The position numbers and the translations under genes are program-made. This document shows positions 470 through 7,587 of a DNA stretch of 64,000 nucleotides, piece after piece; position 1 is the stretch's first letter; every line of letters starts with the position of its first letter. The notes beneath the pieces were generated by a model, which searched no databases, had not been told where the DNA came from, and saw only the letters and a program-made list of their open reading frames with translations. Source of the DNA: an uncultured cyanobacterium (GTDB lineage: Bacteria > Cyanobacteriota > Cyanobacteriia > Pseudanabaenales > Pseudanabaenaceae); the NCBI GenBank assembly GCA_963703315.1, contig OY969811.1, forward strand, positions 832,001-896,000, written 5' to 3'.

Positions 470-1582
470 CTAATAAACGGGTAGAGTAAATCGGAAACAA
501 CTGCCTTTTTTACCGATCGCGTCATCAACCCAGATATGACCATAGTGGGCAGTAATAATCCGACGACATAGAGATAAACCAATGCCATAGCCATCAGCCT
601 TATCATCACGCTCCAGTCGATAACGCTCTTCAAATATGCGATCGCGCAGTTCCGCAGGAATTCCGGGCCCATTATCAGTAATGCTAACTTCGATTTTTTG
701 AGAAGTACGATGCATGACGGTTAGCTCGATTTTGCCGCCTTCAGGAGTGTATTTGGTAGCATTCCCCAAAAGATTAATGAGAACTTGACGAATTTTTTCT
801 TGATCAACATATACAGGAGGAAGATCGGTGGGAATATCTTTGATCAGCTTTTGGAGCTTCTTTTCTAAACATTTGCTGAAATAAAAATCACTAACGACGC
901 TGTGGCAAAGTTGATCAAACTGAATCTTTTGTCTTTGAGTCCGAAATTGAGCATTTGCCCCCCGCCCCGCTTCCAGAATATCGGTAATTAAGTTATCAGC
1001 TTCTCGCGCTTTGGTACGGGCGTGTTTCAGAAGACGCGATACCATTTGAGAATCAATTTTGTCACCACTTTTTTCAATGGTGTCGATCGCTAATAAAATT
1101 GCCGTGAAGGGATTGCGTAAATCATGGGCAAGCATTCCCAAGACACGATCTTTAAAGCGAATTTGCTCCTCGATTTCAGCTTTTTCCTGTGAAAGTCGAA
1201 ATACATCATCCGCGAGGCGAGCCACCTCATTCATATATTCAATATTTTGAGAAAGTTCGGGAGGATGGTTTGTGGATTGATCTAATACTTGCTGTTTCCA
1301 TGTATCCCAAGAACTTTCTAGCTGCTTAATGATATTTTTTCCCGCAATTGTCTGTCTTGGTAAAGGCGATAATTTGAGGAGTGCGGGTGACATGACCACC
1401 TTAAATAGCTCTGCAAGTTGGGGCTGACTGGCAACATTGATGATTTGCAATTCCGAGCGACAATTATTTTCTTGTTGCAAAAACTCCTCTACTTCCTTGA
1501 CGAGTTCTTTTGCCTTGGGGCGATCGTCAATAAATAGTAAAAGTTGGAGGGTTGATTCAGGTAATGTTGGAATAGTCCTCAT
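470..1582 (-). CDS. sasA: Circadian output histidine kinase SasA
   Basis: KaiB-like N-terminus (LQLLLFIDDRP..QPQLAELFKVVMSPALLKLSPLPRQTIAG), H-box LAHDLRNP, HATPase N/G boxes. Confidence 0.93.
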   Translation of the reverse strand: MRTIPTLPESTLQLLLFIDDRPKAKELVKEVEEFLQQENNCRSELQIINVASQPQLAELFKVVMSPALLKLSPLPRQTIAGKNIIKQLESSWDTWKQQVLDQSTNHPPELSQNIEYMNEVARLADDVFRLSQEKAEIEEQIRFKDRVLGMLAHDLRNPFTAILLAIDTIEKSGDKIDSQMVSRLLKHARTKAREADNLITDILEAGRGANAQFRTQRQKIQFDQLCHSVVSDFYFSKCLEKKLQKLIKDIPTDLPPVYVDQEKIRQVLINLLGNATKYTPEGGKIELTVMHRTSQKIEVSITDNGPGIPAELRDRIFEERYRLERDDKADGYGIGLSLCRRIITAHYGHIWVDDAIGKKGSCFRFTLPVY

Positions 1583-1640
1583 TGACTTTCGGACTCACAA
1601 CGGATTTTAAGACATTCTTAATAATTATATTATTGTTCTC

Positions 1641-2807
1641 ATGGTTTTACCTCAACAGCGATGGCAGATTTCCGCACCACAGCCAAATTTATCGGCAAAG
1701 ATCGCTAATGTTACGGGACTTTCGCCCATAATCGCGCAGGTTTTACTAAATCGCGGTATTAATACCCCTGAAGCCGCTAAGGTTTTTCTTGATCCCGAAC
1801 TGGAAGATCTGCCTGATCCCAAACAGGAATTTCCTGATTTAATTGCGAGTATCGATCGCATTGAGCAAGCTATAAAAAACGGCGATCGCATTACAATCTG
1901 TGGTGACTATGATGTTGACGGCATGACTAGTACCGCTTTGTTAATTCGGACTTTGCGACTATTGGGTGGCAATGTGGAATATGAAATTCCGAGTCGGATG
2001 ACGGAGGGCTATGGAATTAATGCGCGGATCGTACAGGATTGTCACGATCGCGATGTCAGACTAATTATTACTGTGGACAATGGCATTGCGGCTTATGAGG
2101 CGATCGCCTTAGCCAAATCCTTAAATATTTCTGTAATTGTTACCGATCACCACGAAGTTCCCGAAGACCCCAGCAAAATTCCACCCGCCACCGCAATCCT
2201 CAATCCTAAATATCAAGTTGATCCTGATTCACCCTACGCGGCGATCGCTGGGGTTGGTGTTGCCTATGTGTTGGCGTTGGAATTAAGCGATCGCTTTGGC
2301 AAACGCACCGAGTTAGAAAATCCGTTATTAGAATTATTTACCCTCGGTACAATTGCCGATCTTGCCTCCTTAACAGGCATCAATCGCCGCCTTGTCAAAA
2401 AAGGTTTACGCTTACTTTCGCAATCTAAAGTTATTGGCATCATTGCCCTGATTAATGAAACAGGAATTGCCAAAGATAAACAAACTGGTTTGAAACCTGA
2501 AGCGATCGGTTTTGGTTTGGGACCAAGAATTAATGCGATCGGGCGGATTGGTAATCCGCAAGTAATTATTGATCTGTTGACCTGTGAGGATATGGGGCAG
2601 GCGATCGCCTTAGCCCAAGAATGTGAAGCTACTAATCGCAAGCGTCAAGATCTGTGCAAAGAGATCGAACAAGAGGCGATCGCCTATATGTCAAAGCTCA
2701 AATCAGAGGGTTTTGATATTACTCAAGAACGAGTTTTAGTAATAGTTGATCGGGAGGTGCAGGATACTCTCTATCCTGCTCCCAAGGGAAACAAAGAAAT
2801 GGCGTAG
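1641..2807 (+). CDS. recJ: RecJ ssDNA exonuclease, N-terminal DHH half of a split gene
   Basis: GDYDVDG, TVDNG, TDHH, LGTIAD and GPRINAIGR motifs; ORF stops after ERVLVIVD, before the WHxGVIGIVA motif. Confidence 0.9.
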   Translation: MVLPQQRWQISAPQPNLSAKIANVTGLSPIIAQVLLNRGINTPEAAKVFLDPELEDLPDPKQEFPDLIASIDRIEQAIKNGDRITICGDYDVDGMTSTALLIRTLRLLGGNVEYEIPSRMTEGYGINARIVQDCHDRDVRLIITVDNGIAAYEAIALAKSLNISVIVTDHHEVPEDPSKIPPATAILNPKYQVDPDSPYAAIAGVGVAYVLALELSDRFGKRTELENPLLELFTLGTIADLASLTGINRRLVKKGLRLLSQSKVIGIIALINETGIAKDKQTGLKPEAIGFGLGPRINAIGRIGNPQVIIDLLTCEDMGQAIALAQECEATNRKRQDLCKEIEQEAIAYMSKLKSEGFDITQERVLVIVDREVQDTLYPAPKGNKEMA

Positions 2808-2821
2808 CTATTTCTTTGTTT
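2789..2821. repeat. Triloop hairpin containing the recJ-N stop codon
   Basis: aaacaaagaaatggc-gta-gctatttctttgttt; the TAG at 2805-2807 lies at the loop. Confidence 0.85.
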
Positions 2822-2915
2822 GAAAACCCTTACTGGGTTTGGTTTTCAATTCACAAACATTGTGGTCACACTTTTGTGAATTGGTATTATAAAGTTTAAG
2901 TTAGGTAAAGTCATT

Positions 2916-3560
2916 ATGAACACATTACTCAAACCAGCCTCAAACCAAATAGACACATGGATTAATGCTCCTTGGTCAGAATTTGTAGCGATCTCCGATT
3001 CAACCGATAGCGACAAACGCAAAAGCTACTATTACAAACAACAGATGAGATTTGAGGATATGTCCACAGGTTCCGATCACGCTAACGATCACGCATTAAT
3101 TCTATTTGCCATCTCCTTTTATGCCGCCACAAAGCAAATACCCATGACTGCCAAAGATGGCTGCTCCTATCGCCAAAGCGGAAAAACTGAATTTCAGCCC
3201 GATGTCTCCTATTACATTGGTGACAATGCCGATGCGATCGCTTGGGGAACGCGCATCATTGACCTCGATCAATATCCCTTACCCGATCTCGTCATTGAAA
3301 TATCTGACACCACCTTCAACGATGACCTCGGCACAAAACGCCTGCAATACGAAGAATTAGGCATCAAAGAATATTGGATCGTCAATGTCCAAACTATGAA
3401 AATCTATGCCTTTGCGATCGCCCCCGATGGCAGCAGCCATCATATTCGCCAATCCTTAGTGCTATCAGGATTAAAACTCGAAATCTTAGAACAAGTTCTC
3501 GAACGTAGTCGCCAAGAAAATCAATCAACCGTCACCGCATGGCTAATGAAGCAATTCTAA
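2916..3560 (+). CDS. Uma2 (DUF820) family endonuclease
   Basis: FQPDVSYYIG, PDLVIEIS, DDLGTKRLQYEELGIKEYWIVNV. Confidence 0.9.
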   Translation: MNTLLKPASNQIDTWINAPWSEFVAISDSTDSDKRKSYYYKQQMRFEDMSTGSDHANDHALILFAISFYAATKQIPMTAKDGCSYRQSGKTEFQPDVSYYIGDNADAIAWGTRIIDLDQYPLPDLVIEISDTTFNDDLGTKRLQYEELGIKEYWIVNVQTMKIYAFAIAPDGSSHHIRQSLVLSGLKLEILEQVLERSRQENQSTVTAWLMKQF

Positions 3561-3620
3561 CGAGCGCTAAAGATTGAGAAGTTTGCCAGTTTAGAAATAT
3601 GCAACTTAAGTTAGAAGCAA

Positions 3621-5747
3621 ATGGAAATACAGTCAGCGAATTTTAGTTTTTTGCGCGAGCATGATCCACAATTGGTAAACCTTGCTGCCAGAGCTGAACA
3701 GTATTTACATAGCGACAGTAATACCTGCATCATCAAACTGCGGCAATTTGCCGAGCGTCTTGCCCAGCACATCGCCAACAATACAGGGCATTATCAAGCA
3801 GAAGATGAAGCACAGCTAGATTTGCTAAGACGACTTAAAGCAGAAGGTGTCATTTCTCGTGAAGTCGCTGAACTTTTCCATAGCATTCGCATCGGAGGCA
3901 ATCATGCCGCCCATAAAGGCAAAGATGACAGCCGCCAAGCCCTTACTCTCCTCGAAAATGCACATGAGTTAGGCAACTGGTTTCATCACGAATTTGGTAA
4001 TGACAGAAATTTTAGGGCAGGGGTATTCGTGCCACCTGCTCCGCCCATCGATGCTGAAATGGAGAGACTGAAAAGGGATGCCGAACAATCTCGCCGAGAT
4101 GCCGAAGAAAAAGAGATTGCTCTGAAAATAGCCGAAGCAGAAAAGCAACGATTGGAAAAAATATTGCGCGATTTGGATGCCGAACAATCTCGCCGAGATG
4201 CCGAAGAAAAAGAGATCGCCCTGAAAATAGCTGAAGCACAAGCCCGTCAAGCCGAAGTAGAAAAGCAACGATTAGAAGACATAGCGAGAGAAAAGGAAAA
4301 GCAAAGAATAGAAGAGAATATTACCAATCAAATTGATACACATCCACAAACTGCGGATATCCCCAATCAACTACAAATTGACACTAAAAATATCGATCCC
4401 GATGAAGATCTAACTGGTCAAGTTAGCGATCCAAGTCGAGAAATTGCTCCTGTTGCCAAAGAGGAAACAGCCCTCACCCCCATAGAGAGCAGTAAGAAAG
4501 AAAAGAGTAAGAAATCGGGTTGGCATCATGGGGTGATTGGGATTGTTGCTTCGCGTCTAGTGGAACGTTACGGCGCACCCGTATTTATTGGCAGTTATGA
4601 AGATGCCCATGATGATGATTCTGACCAAGTTGCCACTGTGCGCTTCTCAGTGCGGGGAATTCCAGAATTTCATGTTTTCAACGCCCTTGAATATGAACCG
4701 ATTAAAACTATTCGCAACAAAGGTGGCGGACATAAAGCGGCGGGTGGTTTTACTCTGCCTGCGGAGAATCTGGAAAAGCTGCGAGATGGATTAAGGGAAT
4801 TTGCCGATCGCGAAAATATTCTCCCTAGTCACATCATGCCTCTAGTCAATGTCGATGTTCGTGTCGATCTCAGTGATATCTCCATGACACTTCTGCAACA
4901 ATGCGATCGCCTGCAACCCTGCGGACTTGGTAATTCTGATCCTGTGTTCTATAGCGAAAATGTGCGCGTCATTTCCCAACAAACTCGCGGTAAGGATAAA
5001 GTCAAACATCTTTCTCTAGAACTGGATACAGGCAATGGCAAAATCAAAGCGATCGCATGGCGATGGGGAGAATATTGTCCTGTCCCTGATCATATAGATA
5101 TTGCTTACAAGTTGCGTGCGAATCAATGGCAAGATACAACTTCTGTAGAATTGGAAATAGTTGGTATTCGTGAAGCAGGTAATCTCATGGAAGATGCTAC
5201 AAGTTCGCCGAAACAGATTCAACTGCAATATAAACCTGCGCCCCTAATTAGCAAGGTTCCCCAATGGCAAAAACTCAGTGAAGCCACAAGACCTTTACCT
5301 CGTCCATTATTACTATATGGCTGCGATCGCCCTGCCGATAAGTTCCAAGGTGATGTCGATTGCGATCGCCCGAAACGAGATCGTAATTATGAAGCAGTCG
5401 TCCTATGGACTTTGCCACCATCATTCACACATCTGCAATGGCTAATCGCTACTGCCCAACCTGACTATATCTATCTTGGTTCTCATATTCCATCAGTTCC
5501 TTCCATTGAGCAATTTCGCGCCCAAGTTCAATCTCTTGATTTAGAGAATATCGAAAAATTAAATCTATTAGATATCTCGCAGCAATGGTGGATTTCACCT
5601 AGTGCGATCATTGCTGCCCTAAGAGAAAGAGGTTATCTCTGCGATTTCCCCAATACTTTACCTCTTGAAGGAGAATTACTGAGAATGCAAAAGTGGTACA
5701 GCATCGCTATCAATAAACTTGCTAAGATTCTTGCTGATCAACAATAG
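3621..5747 (+). CDS. Fusion of HsdR N-terminal-like/DUF4145 domain, coiled coil and RecJ C-terminal half (DHHA1, OB fold, cyanobacterial C-tail)
   Basis: N-terminus SANFSFL..AEQY..D.NTCIIKLRQFAE..RIGGNHAAH..FVPP resembles type I RM HsdR N-termini; from 4518 GWHHGVIGIVASRLVERYG, GGGHKAAGG, LQPCGLGNSDPVF and DIAYKLRANQWQ match the RecJ C-half. Confidence 0.85.
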   Translation: MEIQSANFSFLREHDPQLVNLAARAEQYLHSDSNTCIIKLRQFAERLAQHIANNTGHYQAEDEAQLDLLRRLKAEGVISREVAELFHSIRIGGNHAAHKGKDDSRQALTLLENAHELGNWFHHEFGNDRNFRAGVFVPPAPPIDAEMERLKRDAEQSRRDAEEKEIALKIAEAEKQRLEKILRDLDAEQSRRDAEEKEIALKIAEAQARQAEVEKQRLEDIAREKEKQRIEENITNQIDTHPQTADIPNQLQIDTKNIDPDEDLTGQVSDPSREIAPVAKEETALTPIESSKKEKSKKSGWHHGVIGIVASRLVERYGAPVFIGSYEDAHDDDSDQVATVRFSVRGIPEFHVFNALEYEPIKTIRNKGGGHKAAGGFTLPAENLEKLRDGLREFADRENILPSHIMPLVNVDVRVDLSDISMTLLQQCDRLQPCGLGNSDPVFYSENVRVISQQTRGKDKVKHLSLELDTGNGKIKAIAWRWGEYCPVPDHIDIAYKLRANQWQDTTSVELEIVGIREAGNLMEDATSSPKQIQLQYKPAPLISKVPQWQKLSEATRPLPRPLLLYGCDRPADKFQGDVDCDRPKRDRNYEAVVLWTLPPSFTHLQWLIATAQPDYIYLGSHIPSVPSIEQFRAQVQSLDLENIEKLNLLDISQQWWISPSAIIAALRERGYLCDFPNTLPLEGELLRMQKWYSIAINKLAKILADQQ
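4076..4278 (+). repeat. 99-bp-period coding duplication (DAEQSRRDAEEKEIALKIAEA x2)
   Basis: ggatgccgaacaatctcgccgagatgccgaagaaaaagagat at 4076 and 4175. Confidence 0.9.
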
Positions 5748-5874
5748 CGGCGCTAAGTGGTAATTCCGCAAGCATCAATGAGGTTTATTGAAGCGATCAG
5801 TTTTTATAATGACTTGTGTTTCCCAACAGTCAGTAAACTAGAAGCAGTAATCTAAAATTTGGGAGACAGCGATC

Positions 5875-7587
5875 GTGACAAATAGTAAGCCCCGCGATGT
5901 ACAGGTAATTTATATTGCTGACGAAACCTTTGCCCTGCGATCGCGTAGTTGGAATCGGTTACGCTTTGAAATTGAGTATGCTCTGGAAAAAGGAACTACG
6001 GCGAACTCATTCTTAATCCAAGGCAATTTGCAAGCAATAATCGATCCACCTGGAGGAACTTTCACCGAAATTTATTTAGATGAATTACGCAAACGCATCA
6101 ATATTCTTGATATTAGTTATGTGATTCTCGGTCATGTCAACCAAAACCGTATTGAAACACTGAAGGCTTTACTAGAGATTAATAATCGCCTTACCTTTGT
6201 CTGTACGAATCCAGGGGCGATCGCCTTGCGCCAAAATCTAGAGGAAGAATTTGGTGATAATCTCAAAATTCAAGTCGTGCGTGGTGAAGAAGTCCTTGAT
6301 CTTGGGAAAGGACATATTCTCAAATTTATTCCCACTTCTACGCCGCGTCATCCTGATGAGCTTTGTACCTATGACACCAAGACTCAAGTTTTATATACTG
6401 ATAAATTCTTTGGCGCTCATGTCTGCGGTGATCAAGTATTTGATGAAGGCTGGAGCCAATTATTGGGCGATCGCCGCTATTACTTTGACAGCACTATGGC
6501 AAACCAAGTCCGTCAAGTAGAAGCTGCCCTCGATAAGATTACCGATATGCCTGTTAGCTTTTATGCCCCAGGACATGGACCAATGTTGCGTCATGGCTTG
6601 CATGAATTGGTAAATCTTTATCGTCAATGGAGCGAAGCCCAAAAACAACAAAATATTTCAGTGGCGTTGCTATTTGCTTCTGCATACGGCAATACGACCA
6701 CGATCGCCAATGCCTTGGCAAGGGGAATTACAAAGGCAGGGGTTGCGGTTGAGTTGATTAACTGCGAGAGTGCGGAACCTGAAGAAATCAAAGCCGCGAT
6801 CGAAAAATCATCAGGATTTTTAATTGGTTCACCGACCCTAGGCGGACATTTACCCACCCAAGTACAAACGGCTTTGGGGATCGTTCTATCGACAGCAACT
6901 AAAAGCTATCAAGCGGGTGTCTTTGGCTCATACGGCTGGAGTGGTGAAGCCGTTGATATTATTGCTGGCAAACTCAAGGATTCAGGCTATACCCTTGCCT
7001 TTGAACCCATTCGCATCAAATTTACGCCCACTGAAGCAACTTTACAAATTTGTGAAGAAACAGGAACCGATTTTGCCCAAGCGCTGAAACGTGCCAAAAA
7101 AGTCCGCACTACCTTAAATCCTGGTAGCACCGTTGAGCAAGCAGTGGGGCGCATTGTTGGCTCTCTGTGTGTCTTAACGGTGAAGAGGGGCGAAATATCC
7201 ACAGCGATGCTTGCCTCATGGGTATCCCAAGCGACATTTAATCCACCAGGATTGACAGTGGCAGTTGCTAAAGATCGGGCGATCGAGTCCTACTTGTATG
7301 AAGGCGATCGCTTTGTCCTAAATATCCTTGAACAGGGTAAACAAGTTCGTAAGCACTTTATGAAAAAATTTGCCCCTGGGGAAGATCGGTTTATTGATGT
7401 GCCATCAGAAGAAACAAATGGTGGTTTGGTTTTAACTGAGGGGCTTGCCTATTTAGAATGTCGGGTTGCTCAGAGAATGGAATGCGGTGATCACTGGATT
7501 GTCTATGCGATCGTTGAAAATGGCAAACTACTACAATCTAACGGTTTAACCGCTATTCATCATCGTAAAACTGCCAGTAATTATTAA
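5875..7587 (+). CDS. flv1: Flavodiiron (diflavin flavoprotein), Flv1-type
   Basis: RDVQV..FEIEY..GTTANSFLI, MBL-like domain lacking canonical diiron ligands (GHVNQNR), flavodoxin domain (SAYGNT) and flavin-reductase domain (ASWVSQA, GDHW). Confidence 0.85.
   Translation: MTNSKPRDVQVIYIADETFALRSRSWNRLRFEIEYALEKGTTANSFLIQGNLQAIIDPPGGTFTEIYLDELRKRINILDISYVILGHVNQNRIETLKALLEINNRLTFVCTNPGAIALRQNLEEEFGDNLKIQVVRGEEVLDLGKGHILKFIPTSTPRHPDELCTYDTKTQVLYTDKFFGAHVCGDQVFDEGWSQLLGDRRYYFDSTMANQVRQVEAALDKITDMPVSFYAPGHGPMLRHGLHELVNLYRQWSEAQKQQNISVALLFASAYGNTTTIANALARGITKAGVAVELINCESAEPEEIKAAIEKSSGFLIGSPTLGGHLPTQVQTALGIVLSTATKSYQAGVFGSYGWSGEAVDIIAGKLKDSGYTLAFEPIRIKFTPTEATLQICEETGTDFAQALKRAKKVRTTLNPGSTVEQAVGRIVGSLCVLTVKRGEISTAMLASWVSQATFNPPGLTVAVAKDRAIESYLYEGDRFVLNILEQGKQVRKHFMKKFAPGEDRFIDVPSEETNGGLVLTEGLAYLECRVAQRMECGDHWIVYAIVENGKLLQSNGLTAIHHRKTASNY

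Follow-up and report, generated by a model that had tools for sequence, protein, structure and literature searches.

The stretch of DNA considered here, called the window throughout, comprises 64,000 nucleotides (64 kb) of a contig from an uncultured cyanobacterium of the family Pseudanabaenaceae (OY969811.1, positions 832,001 to 896,000), and at its positions 1641-5747 a recJ gene is found in two pieces with a uma2 gene between them. Three open reading frames (ORFs) had been noticed at this place without database searches (hereafter, the sequence-only reading), and the observation is confirmed, all three being open and all lying on the + strand. ORF1 (recJ-N; 1641..2807, +, 388 aa) encodes the N-terminal part of the OB domain, the DHH domain (Pfam DHH at residues 83-237, with the DHH motif at 2145-2153, +), a linker helix, the first strand of DHHA1 (2730-2747, +) and a tail. 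ORF2 (2916..3560, +, 214 aa) is uma2 (PF05685), which encodes a predicted PD-(D/E)XK nuclease and derives from a type I restriction locus. ORF3 (3621..5747, +, 708 aa; DUF4145 at residues 24-108, DHHA1 at 298-394, RecJ_OB at 411-513) opens with a 5' fragment of hsdR (3621..4425, +) that specifies DUF4145 and a coiled coil, gives the C chain its start codon and ends before HSDR_N. A linker (4426..4517, +) follows, in which the palindromic repeat that fills the loops of intact alleles is present in degenerate form (ALTPSPSPKGGEGS-type peptide), and then the recJ-C part itself (4518..5747, +, 409 aa), which begins with GWHHG at 4518 and supplies the remaining DHHA1, the OB fold and the C-terminal domain. 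We consider it likely, from sequence comparison and structural modelling, that the two genes together specify a working RecJ, that the split arose once, and that the split allele has since spread by homologous replacement.

The match to the RecJ family model TIGR00644 is shared out between the two chains, model positions 2-339 falling in ORF1 and 335-543 in ORF3, and each chain misses the cut-off set for a single polypeptide (325 bits for ORF1 and 128 bits for ORF3 vs 396.9). Contigs of run X1, which may be the source sample, tile 1500-5900 with one letter different and bridge both junctions; because they do so, and because the same break recurs in 16 other genomes, a misassembly is ruled out. 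Among the smaller features of the locus are an internal duplication in the hsdR fragment (4076-4241, +, 99-bp spacing) and a dispersed repeat of about 100 bp (2789..2890, no strand given), located by blastn against the own genome, where it returns 101 pieces, 59 of them at least 80 bp long. Copies of the latter occur across the genus too, other repeats take its place in some split alleles, and it has no match in Rfam. Two 24-nt motifs, 71% alike, stand ahead of the starts of uma2 (2881-2904) and ORF3 (3591-3614), the former being kept in most split alleles and adjoining a weak promoter-like site (2863-2890). A promoter and terminator scan gave counts at chance level (7 vs 8.9 and 4 vs 4.4).

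Position of the cut and its distribution

Comparison with solved RecJ proteins by alignment, with a modelled intact relative and with the domain description of drRecJ (PMC4846377) places the cut inside DHHA1, directly after its first beta strand, and not between DHH and DHHA1 as had been proposed. The absence of internal stops, the Uma2 gene between the halves and the resumption of recJ at 4518 had all been read correctly. The statement that ORF1 holds all catalytic motifs stands for the metal-binding motifs of the DHH domain, of which GDYDVDG, TVDNG, VTDHH and a PRINA-type motif are present in 17/17 split alleles and GTIADL in 16/17, but does not extend to the DHHA1 motifs, which lie in ORF3 (SVRG-type in 17/17, GGHKAA in 16/17) along with the OB fold (PF17768). 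Of eight motif patterns, each is matched exactly by at least 16 of the 17 split alleles, the two departures being conservative, and the orphaned DHHA1 strand and the N-terminal strand fit their patterns in every one. The tail of recJ-N carries QDTLYP (2760..2777, +), which is found in 16/17 split alleles (QDTLYT in the remaining one) with synonymous variation present; the tail runs 6-18 residues past DREV, and two alleles end immediately after QDTLYP. A second length-variable loop in DHHA1, acidic and differing among alleles, lies at 4588-4650 (C codons ~29-40).

Across 48 genomes of the genus, recJ is split at this same loop in 17, intact there in 30 and frameshifted elsewhere in one (G003), so that the split is not private to the strain. 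Both halves are open in all 17 split genomes, one C half ending at a contig end. In 70/70 more distant cyanobacterial loci the loop is unbroken and 3 residues long, as the sequence-only reading had supposed for ordinary RecJ in general, but in the intact alleles of the same genus it spans 14-66 residues, mostly palindromic repeat. This repeat has 55 near-copies in the own genome, and we take it to be a small dispersed repeat (SDR), a name for which no source was found. A pattern scan of metagenomes returned five loci, all split-type and like known arrangements, and some two dozen database proteins, partly overlapping the genus genomes, show split forms, their titles presenting the halves as separate RecJ, DHH-family, DHHA1- or DUF4145-domain proteins. 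In three genomes the halves are unlinked: both halves in G022 and G005 and the N half in G012 are surrounded by 6-10 kb of unrelated genes, and all are open.

A second recJ, an intact paralogue of 767 aa with 34% identity, is present in the own genome, and its counterpart was matched without stops in 48/48 genomes, split or not; the other intact recJ for which the sequence-only reading had asked to check does exist. G003 was left out of N-half analyses and G062 (33 codons) out of C-half analyses. The frameshift in G003 (L045, near 1964) is of one base near codon 236, is unconnected with the split and may be a sequencing error. Five distant cyanobacterial recJ frames exceed 1000 aa (L196, L209, L227, L235 and L240), which suggests C-terminal fusions. 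Near the paralogue in the own genome (C1, ~122,234-124,003) lies a ribonucleotide-reductase-like ORF with what is presumably an intein start.

Selection on the pieces and assembly of the two chains

Ratios of nonsynonymous to synonymous divergence (dN/dS) were obtained by a counting method as means over non-independent pairs. N codons 344-373 give 0.07 among split and 0.10 among intact alleles, and C codons 1-140 give 0.10 and 0.07, respectively, dS among the split alleles being 0.7-0.8. Both halves are therefore under purifying selection, with values not near 1, and a mean dS of ~0.7 near the break, with no stop codon, leads us to reject the earlier suggestion of a recent disruption that has not yet decayed. 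The intact paralogue, open in all 48 genomes, could cover for a decaying pseudogene; with 17 alleles free of stops and frameshifts at such divergence and evolving at about the same dN/dS as intact ones, decay is nevertheless highly improbable. Patches resembling intact alleles occur in the split alleles of G000, G020 and G043, a mark of recombination.

An in-frame start for the C chain is present in 17/17 split alleles, with 14 leader lengths ranging from 36 to 312 aa and two different start codons. DUF4145 has been lost in 5/17, in two through an in-frame deletion behind the original start and in three through use of an internal ATG. As the leader varies and the start is always kept, selection would hold the translation of the C chain rather than the leader. 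The fusion of recJ-C to an HsdR-N/DUF4145 domain, as it had been described, holds for DUF4145 and the coiled coil of HsdR, but the HSDR_N nuclease domain is absent, the piece ending before it. A functional role of this piece as sensor, decoy or recruiter, as the sequence-only reading had envisaged, could draw on its being in frame in 12/17 split alleles, on a dN/dS of ~0.55 in those 12, below 1, and on PADLOC matches to type I restriction endonuclease (REase) and candidate defence models. Its constraint is, however, far weaker than that on the RecJ halves or on Uma2 (dN/dS 0.16 in 15 alleles), and we hold such a role to be quite improbable. Because the piece lacks the nuclease domain, is under relaxed constraint and has been deleted in 5/17 in at least two ways, comparison of the alleles presents it as a passenger that serves mainly as the donor of a start codon.

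The N chain was folded without alignments together with ORF3 residues 285-525, and the complex scored 0.82, vs 0.00 for the best of three controls, passing a mark that is reached by 51/78 solved pairs and 2/108 mismatched pairs. At least 90% of contacts agree between runs, and the partner has a predicted local distance difference test (pLDDT) value of at least 84. Two interfaces are modelled, a pair of DHHA1 strands (365-369 with 320-324) and the packing of the N-terminal segment against the OB fold (8-11 with 409-412), as in single-chain RecJ and in keeping with the drRecJ layout; ORF3 residue 415 and the N-chain tail residues 374 and 378 belong to the modelled interface. The chains would thus reassemble non-covalently, the N chain completing the DHHA1 sheet with its last strand and packing on the OB fold through its first ~40 residues. 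The proposal of a two-subunit RecJ assembled in trans is supported as a prediction by the break shared among 17/48 genomes, the purifying selection, the kept motifs and the model score, and the two chains probably do reassemble into one enzyme.

Two other ways of accounting for the conserved halves may be weighed here. Each half might work alone or with other partners, and that the halves are unlinked in three genomes would suit this possibility; the orphaned DHHA1 strand and the N-terminal strand are, however, kept in 17/17, and the model has each of them paired with the opposite chain; substrate binding by RecJ requires DHH and DHHA1 jointly (PMC4846377), which makes independent action very unlikely. 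Alternatively, the product might be rejoined covalently through DNA excision, RNA splicing, an intein or ribosomal bypass, for which a small hairpin after the 5' junction in the window and the repeat remnants on either side of the insert could be adduced. The bases of the hairpin vary synonymously, and an intein, intron or RNA element at the junctions was discarded as a candidate, Pfam giving no intein or recombinase domain and Rfam no match. Given the lack of such matches, and three genomes in which the halves lie apart, covalent rejoining has only the faintest likelihood. No joint that skips the junctions was present in contigs of runs X1, X15 or X20, although contigs cannot prove absence. 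The one junction skip, in X2, looks like an intact relative, since 91 other letters differ. Runs X15 and X20 are RNA runs whose contigs represent related split alleles, and such contigs show neither transcription nor the absence of splicing.

Source of the insert and spread between species

Loci of the order hsdS-uma2-hsdR-hsdM in G046, G051 and G060 carry a near-identical uma2 between hsdS and a full hsdR-hsdM pair, and in G058 uma2 comes after hsdS where the contig ends. Over its first ~265 residues ORF3 aligns with the HsdR of such loci, up to just before HSDR_N, and it then passes into repeat-derived sequence; the full HsdR has both the HSDR_N nuclease and the helicase domains, whereas ORF3 retains DUF4145 without either. 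These alignments identify the insert as uma2 together with a 5' piece of hsdR, both taken from the type I restriction locus of the genus, and remnants on both sides suggest that it entered through shared repeats. The following course of events may be proposed. Comparison shows that in this genus the loop after the first DHHA1 strand was first lengthened by in-frame palindromic repeats; a single recombination, probably through these repeats, would then have brought the uma2-hsdR' segment into the loop and cut recJ; and translation of the C part would have restarted from the hsdR start codon.

Uma2 lies intact beside recJ-N in 14/17 split alleles, is displaced in one and fragmentary in two. Downstream of recJ-N in G005 come another gene, uma2 and a complete hsdR, with recJ-C on a separate contig, a layout that would fit recombination between the cassette and a restriction locus. 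An extra small ORF follows uma2 both in the cassette of G045 (L051) and in the restriction locus of G058 (L255), which hints at ongoing exchange between the two. In the own genome, the type I locus (L072:3204-4037; C1 ~3,495,000) has hsdS and then a frameshifted, truncated hsdR, with no match to uma2 and no hsdM within the 5.2 kb read; comparisons past the frameshift of this hsdR copy are invalid and were excluded. A palindrome at the junction was considered as a recombination site or repeat family and dropped, its exact sequence occurring only once in the genome. The Uma2 family is abundant in these genomes, and an ORF at the window edge (27-386) that carries AESAEQR repeats is presumably the C-terminal end of another Uma2-like protein.

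On a species tree built from the recJ paralogue and the rpoC1 region, the split state requires 13 changes, at least 11 of them forced by starred branches, which is no fewer than under shuffled labels (143/500 as low); the tree of the recJ N half likewise requires 13. Monophyly of the split alleles is rejected for both distal parts of recJ (approximately unbiased (AU) test, p 1.65e-65 and 8.8e-43). On the tree of N codons 344-373 and C codons 1-130, by contrast, the 17 split alleles form one clade (99/94), sister to the intact allele of G055, and C codons 65-130 alone require one change. From the scatter on the species tree and the single clade at the break it follows, as far as trees can tell, that the split allele is of single origin and has been moved repeatedly between many related species by allele replacement, a spread that the sequence-only reading had not foreseen.

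The replaced tracts are unequal. On the 5' side the co-conversion tract is short (2670..2759, +, about 0-90 bp), the window allele being 96-98% identical to the five nearest split alleles within it, and the crossover can sit nearly at the junction. The 3' tract (4518..4908, +; C codons 1 to ~117-130) includes an EPIK-type insertion (4695-4706, +) and an R[V/I] pair (4860-4865, +) and always extends to codon 116-117. At codon 116 the second base reads T in 17/17 split and 0/29 intact alleles, and database proteins show the same linkage wherever the pattern is readable. Each transfer by homologous replacement would thus have taken with it 0-90 bp of sequence before the insert and ~350 bp or more after it. 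A test for foreign patches was restricted to genomes for which an intact relative of at least 88% identity exists; the tract is there nearer to a distant species than to the closest such relative in 7/7 split and 1/24 intact genomes, and 3/470 control windows behave likewise.

What drives the spread may be considered from three sides, each of them compatible with a working two-chain RecJ. In the first, homing, Uma2 would cut intact recJ at a site ~350 bp past the loop, and the cassette would be copied in during repair from the split allele, together with the tract as far as the cut. Such a process would explain the one-sided tract that ends at a fully diagnostic site, the intact state of uma2 in 15/17 split genomes under constraint and its 99-100% identity between some species, the patchy distribution with co-converted flanks, and the tendency of intact alleles, mostly, to track species groups where split alleles do not; free-standing T4 endonucleases with distant cleavage sites and one-sided tracts offer a precedent (PMC2988022). 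The nuclease gene is, however, not confined to genomes immune at the target, near-identical Uma2 (84-90% at the DNA level) occurring in type I loci of three intact-recJ genomes (G046, G051 and G060); the cassette copies are intermixed with restriction-locus copies on the uma2 tree and carry two central blocks; Uma2 is called a "predicted endonuclease" at most (PMC3424549); and the diagnostic residue lies in the modelled interface as well. Homing by Uma2 is for these reasons an unlikely driver, and it is to the same degree doubtful that the cassette is a selfish homing element on a cellular chromosome, built of restriction-locus parts and invading species serially.

In the second, ordinary transformation would spread a near-neutral allele, the locus being prone to recombination and selection merely keeping the halves working. 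The recJ N half does have more foreign patches than controls (7/93 genome-windows vs 3/470 control windows), and the cassette exchanges with the restriction locus as well. Against this stand the contrast of 7/7 and 1/24 for the tract and the behaviour of codon 116, which is never of the intact type in split alleles and never of the split type in intact ones, so that near-neutral transfer also seems improbable.

In the third, selection on the split allele itself would drive the spread, a view that we hold with about even confidence and regard as more likely than homing. The long 3' tract would be retained because the split enzyme needs its own DHHA1 and OB residues, such as V/I at ORF3 residue 415; as this residue lies in the modelled interface, epistasis would account for the tract without homing. 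By analogy, one candidate benefit is a shift in RecJ activity that would affect DNA uptake and recombination. Loss of recJ in Synechocystis raises transformation frequency (PMC10667661), so that the split allele might alter gene flow, a relevance that presupposes orthology to the split paralogue.

Several points weigh against the account of a working two-gene RecJ of single origin that has spread by replacement. The interfaces of the complex match those of single-chain RecJ, so that the score may stem from likeness to solved RecJ proteins and is not proof of binding; the paralogue present in 48/48 genomes could buffer loss of the split recJ; and the dN/dS values come from pairs that are not independent of one another and in part reflect what recombination brought in from intact alleles. 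The species tree comprises two loci only, the ~0.5-kb window that yields the single clade was picked after the identity profile had been seen, and some mosaicism is present in the recJ N half too.

Comparison with known systems

The case is of interest in that a core chromosomal repair nuclease, cut within a domain, appears to be retained under selection in nature, with all stages present, from the short loop through the repeat-expanded loop and the cassette insertion to alleles that have lost the leader or whose halves lie apart. The establishment of a split enzyme becomes open to direct test, as does the reason for which an allele passes from species to species far more often than control loci. 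If homing were true, the Uma2 family would gain a function and the two-chain RecJ would be left working. A literature search, whose scope left most subscription papers outside, brought up no title or abstract on a recJ that is split or mobile, and no split RecJ was found in the available part of PMC3655853.

Like bacterial RecJ (TIGR00644; 5f54, 2zxo, 8y30), the predicted enzyme has all domains and motifs in the usual order, spread here over two chains; unlike it, it is encoded by two genes, is cut in DHHA1 and has each chain under the family cut-off. It resembles a type I locus with a DUF4145-bearing HsdR (PRK11448) as the source of uma2 and the first ~265 residues of ORF3, but the cassette lacks HSDR_N, helicase, hsdM and hsdS and is not a restriction enzyme. 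With the fractured genes that carry split inteins (PMC2677866) it shares gene halves that flank a nuclease gene; it differs in having no intein sequence, an N tail of 6-18 residues after DREV and an HsdR-derived leader.

The closest likeness is to the genes-in-pieces of T4-like phages, among them nrdA-a/nrdA-b of Aeh1, split by mobE (PMC3045599), the T4 topoisomerase gene, split by mobA, and the split gene 43 (PMC2988022). As in these, a nuclease gene sits within a gene of DNA metabolism, two polypeptides bear new tails at the break, splicing elements are absent and the flanks are co-converted (PMC2988022, PMC10448857), and the two halves of recJ are open and under selection with neither intron nor intein. 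The present case is unlike them in that the gene is the chromosomal recJ of a cellular organism, its enzyme predicted here from sequence, in that the inserted DNA originated in a type I restriction locus and brings a start-codon donor, the C-chain leader being dispensable, and in that the nuclease is Uma2 rather than HNH or GIY-YIG.

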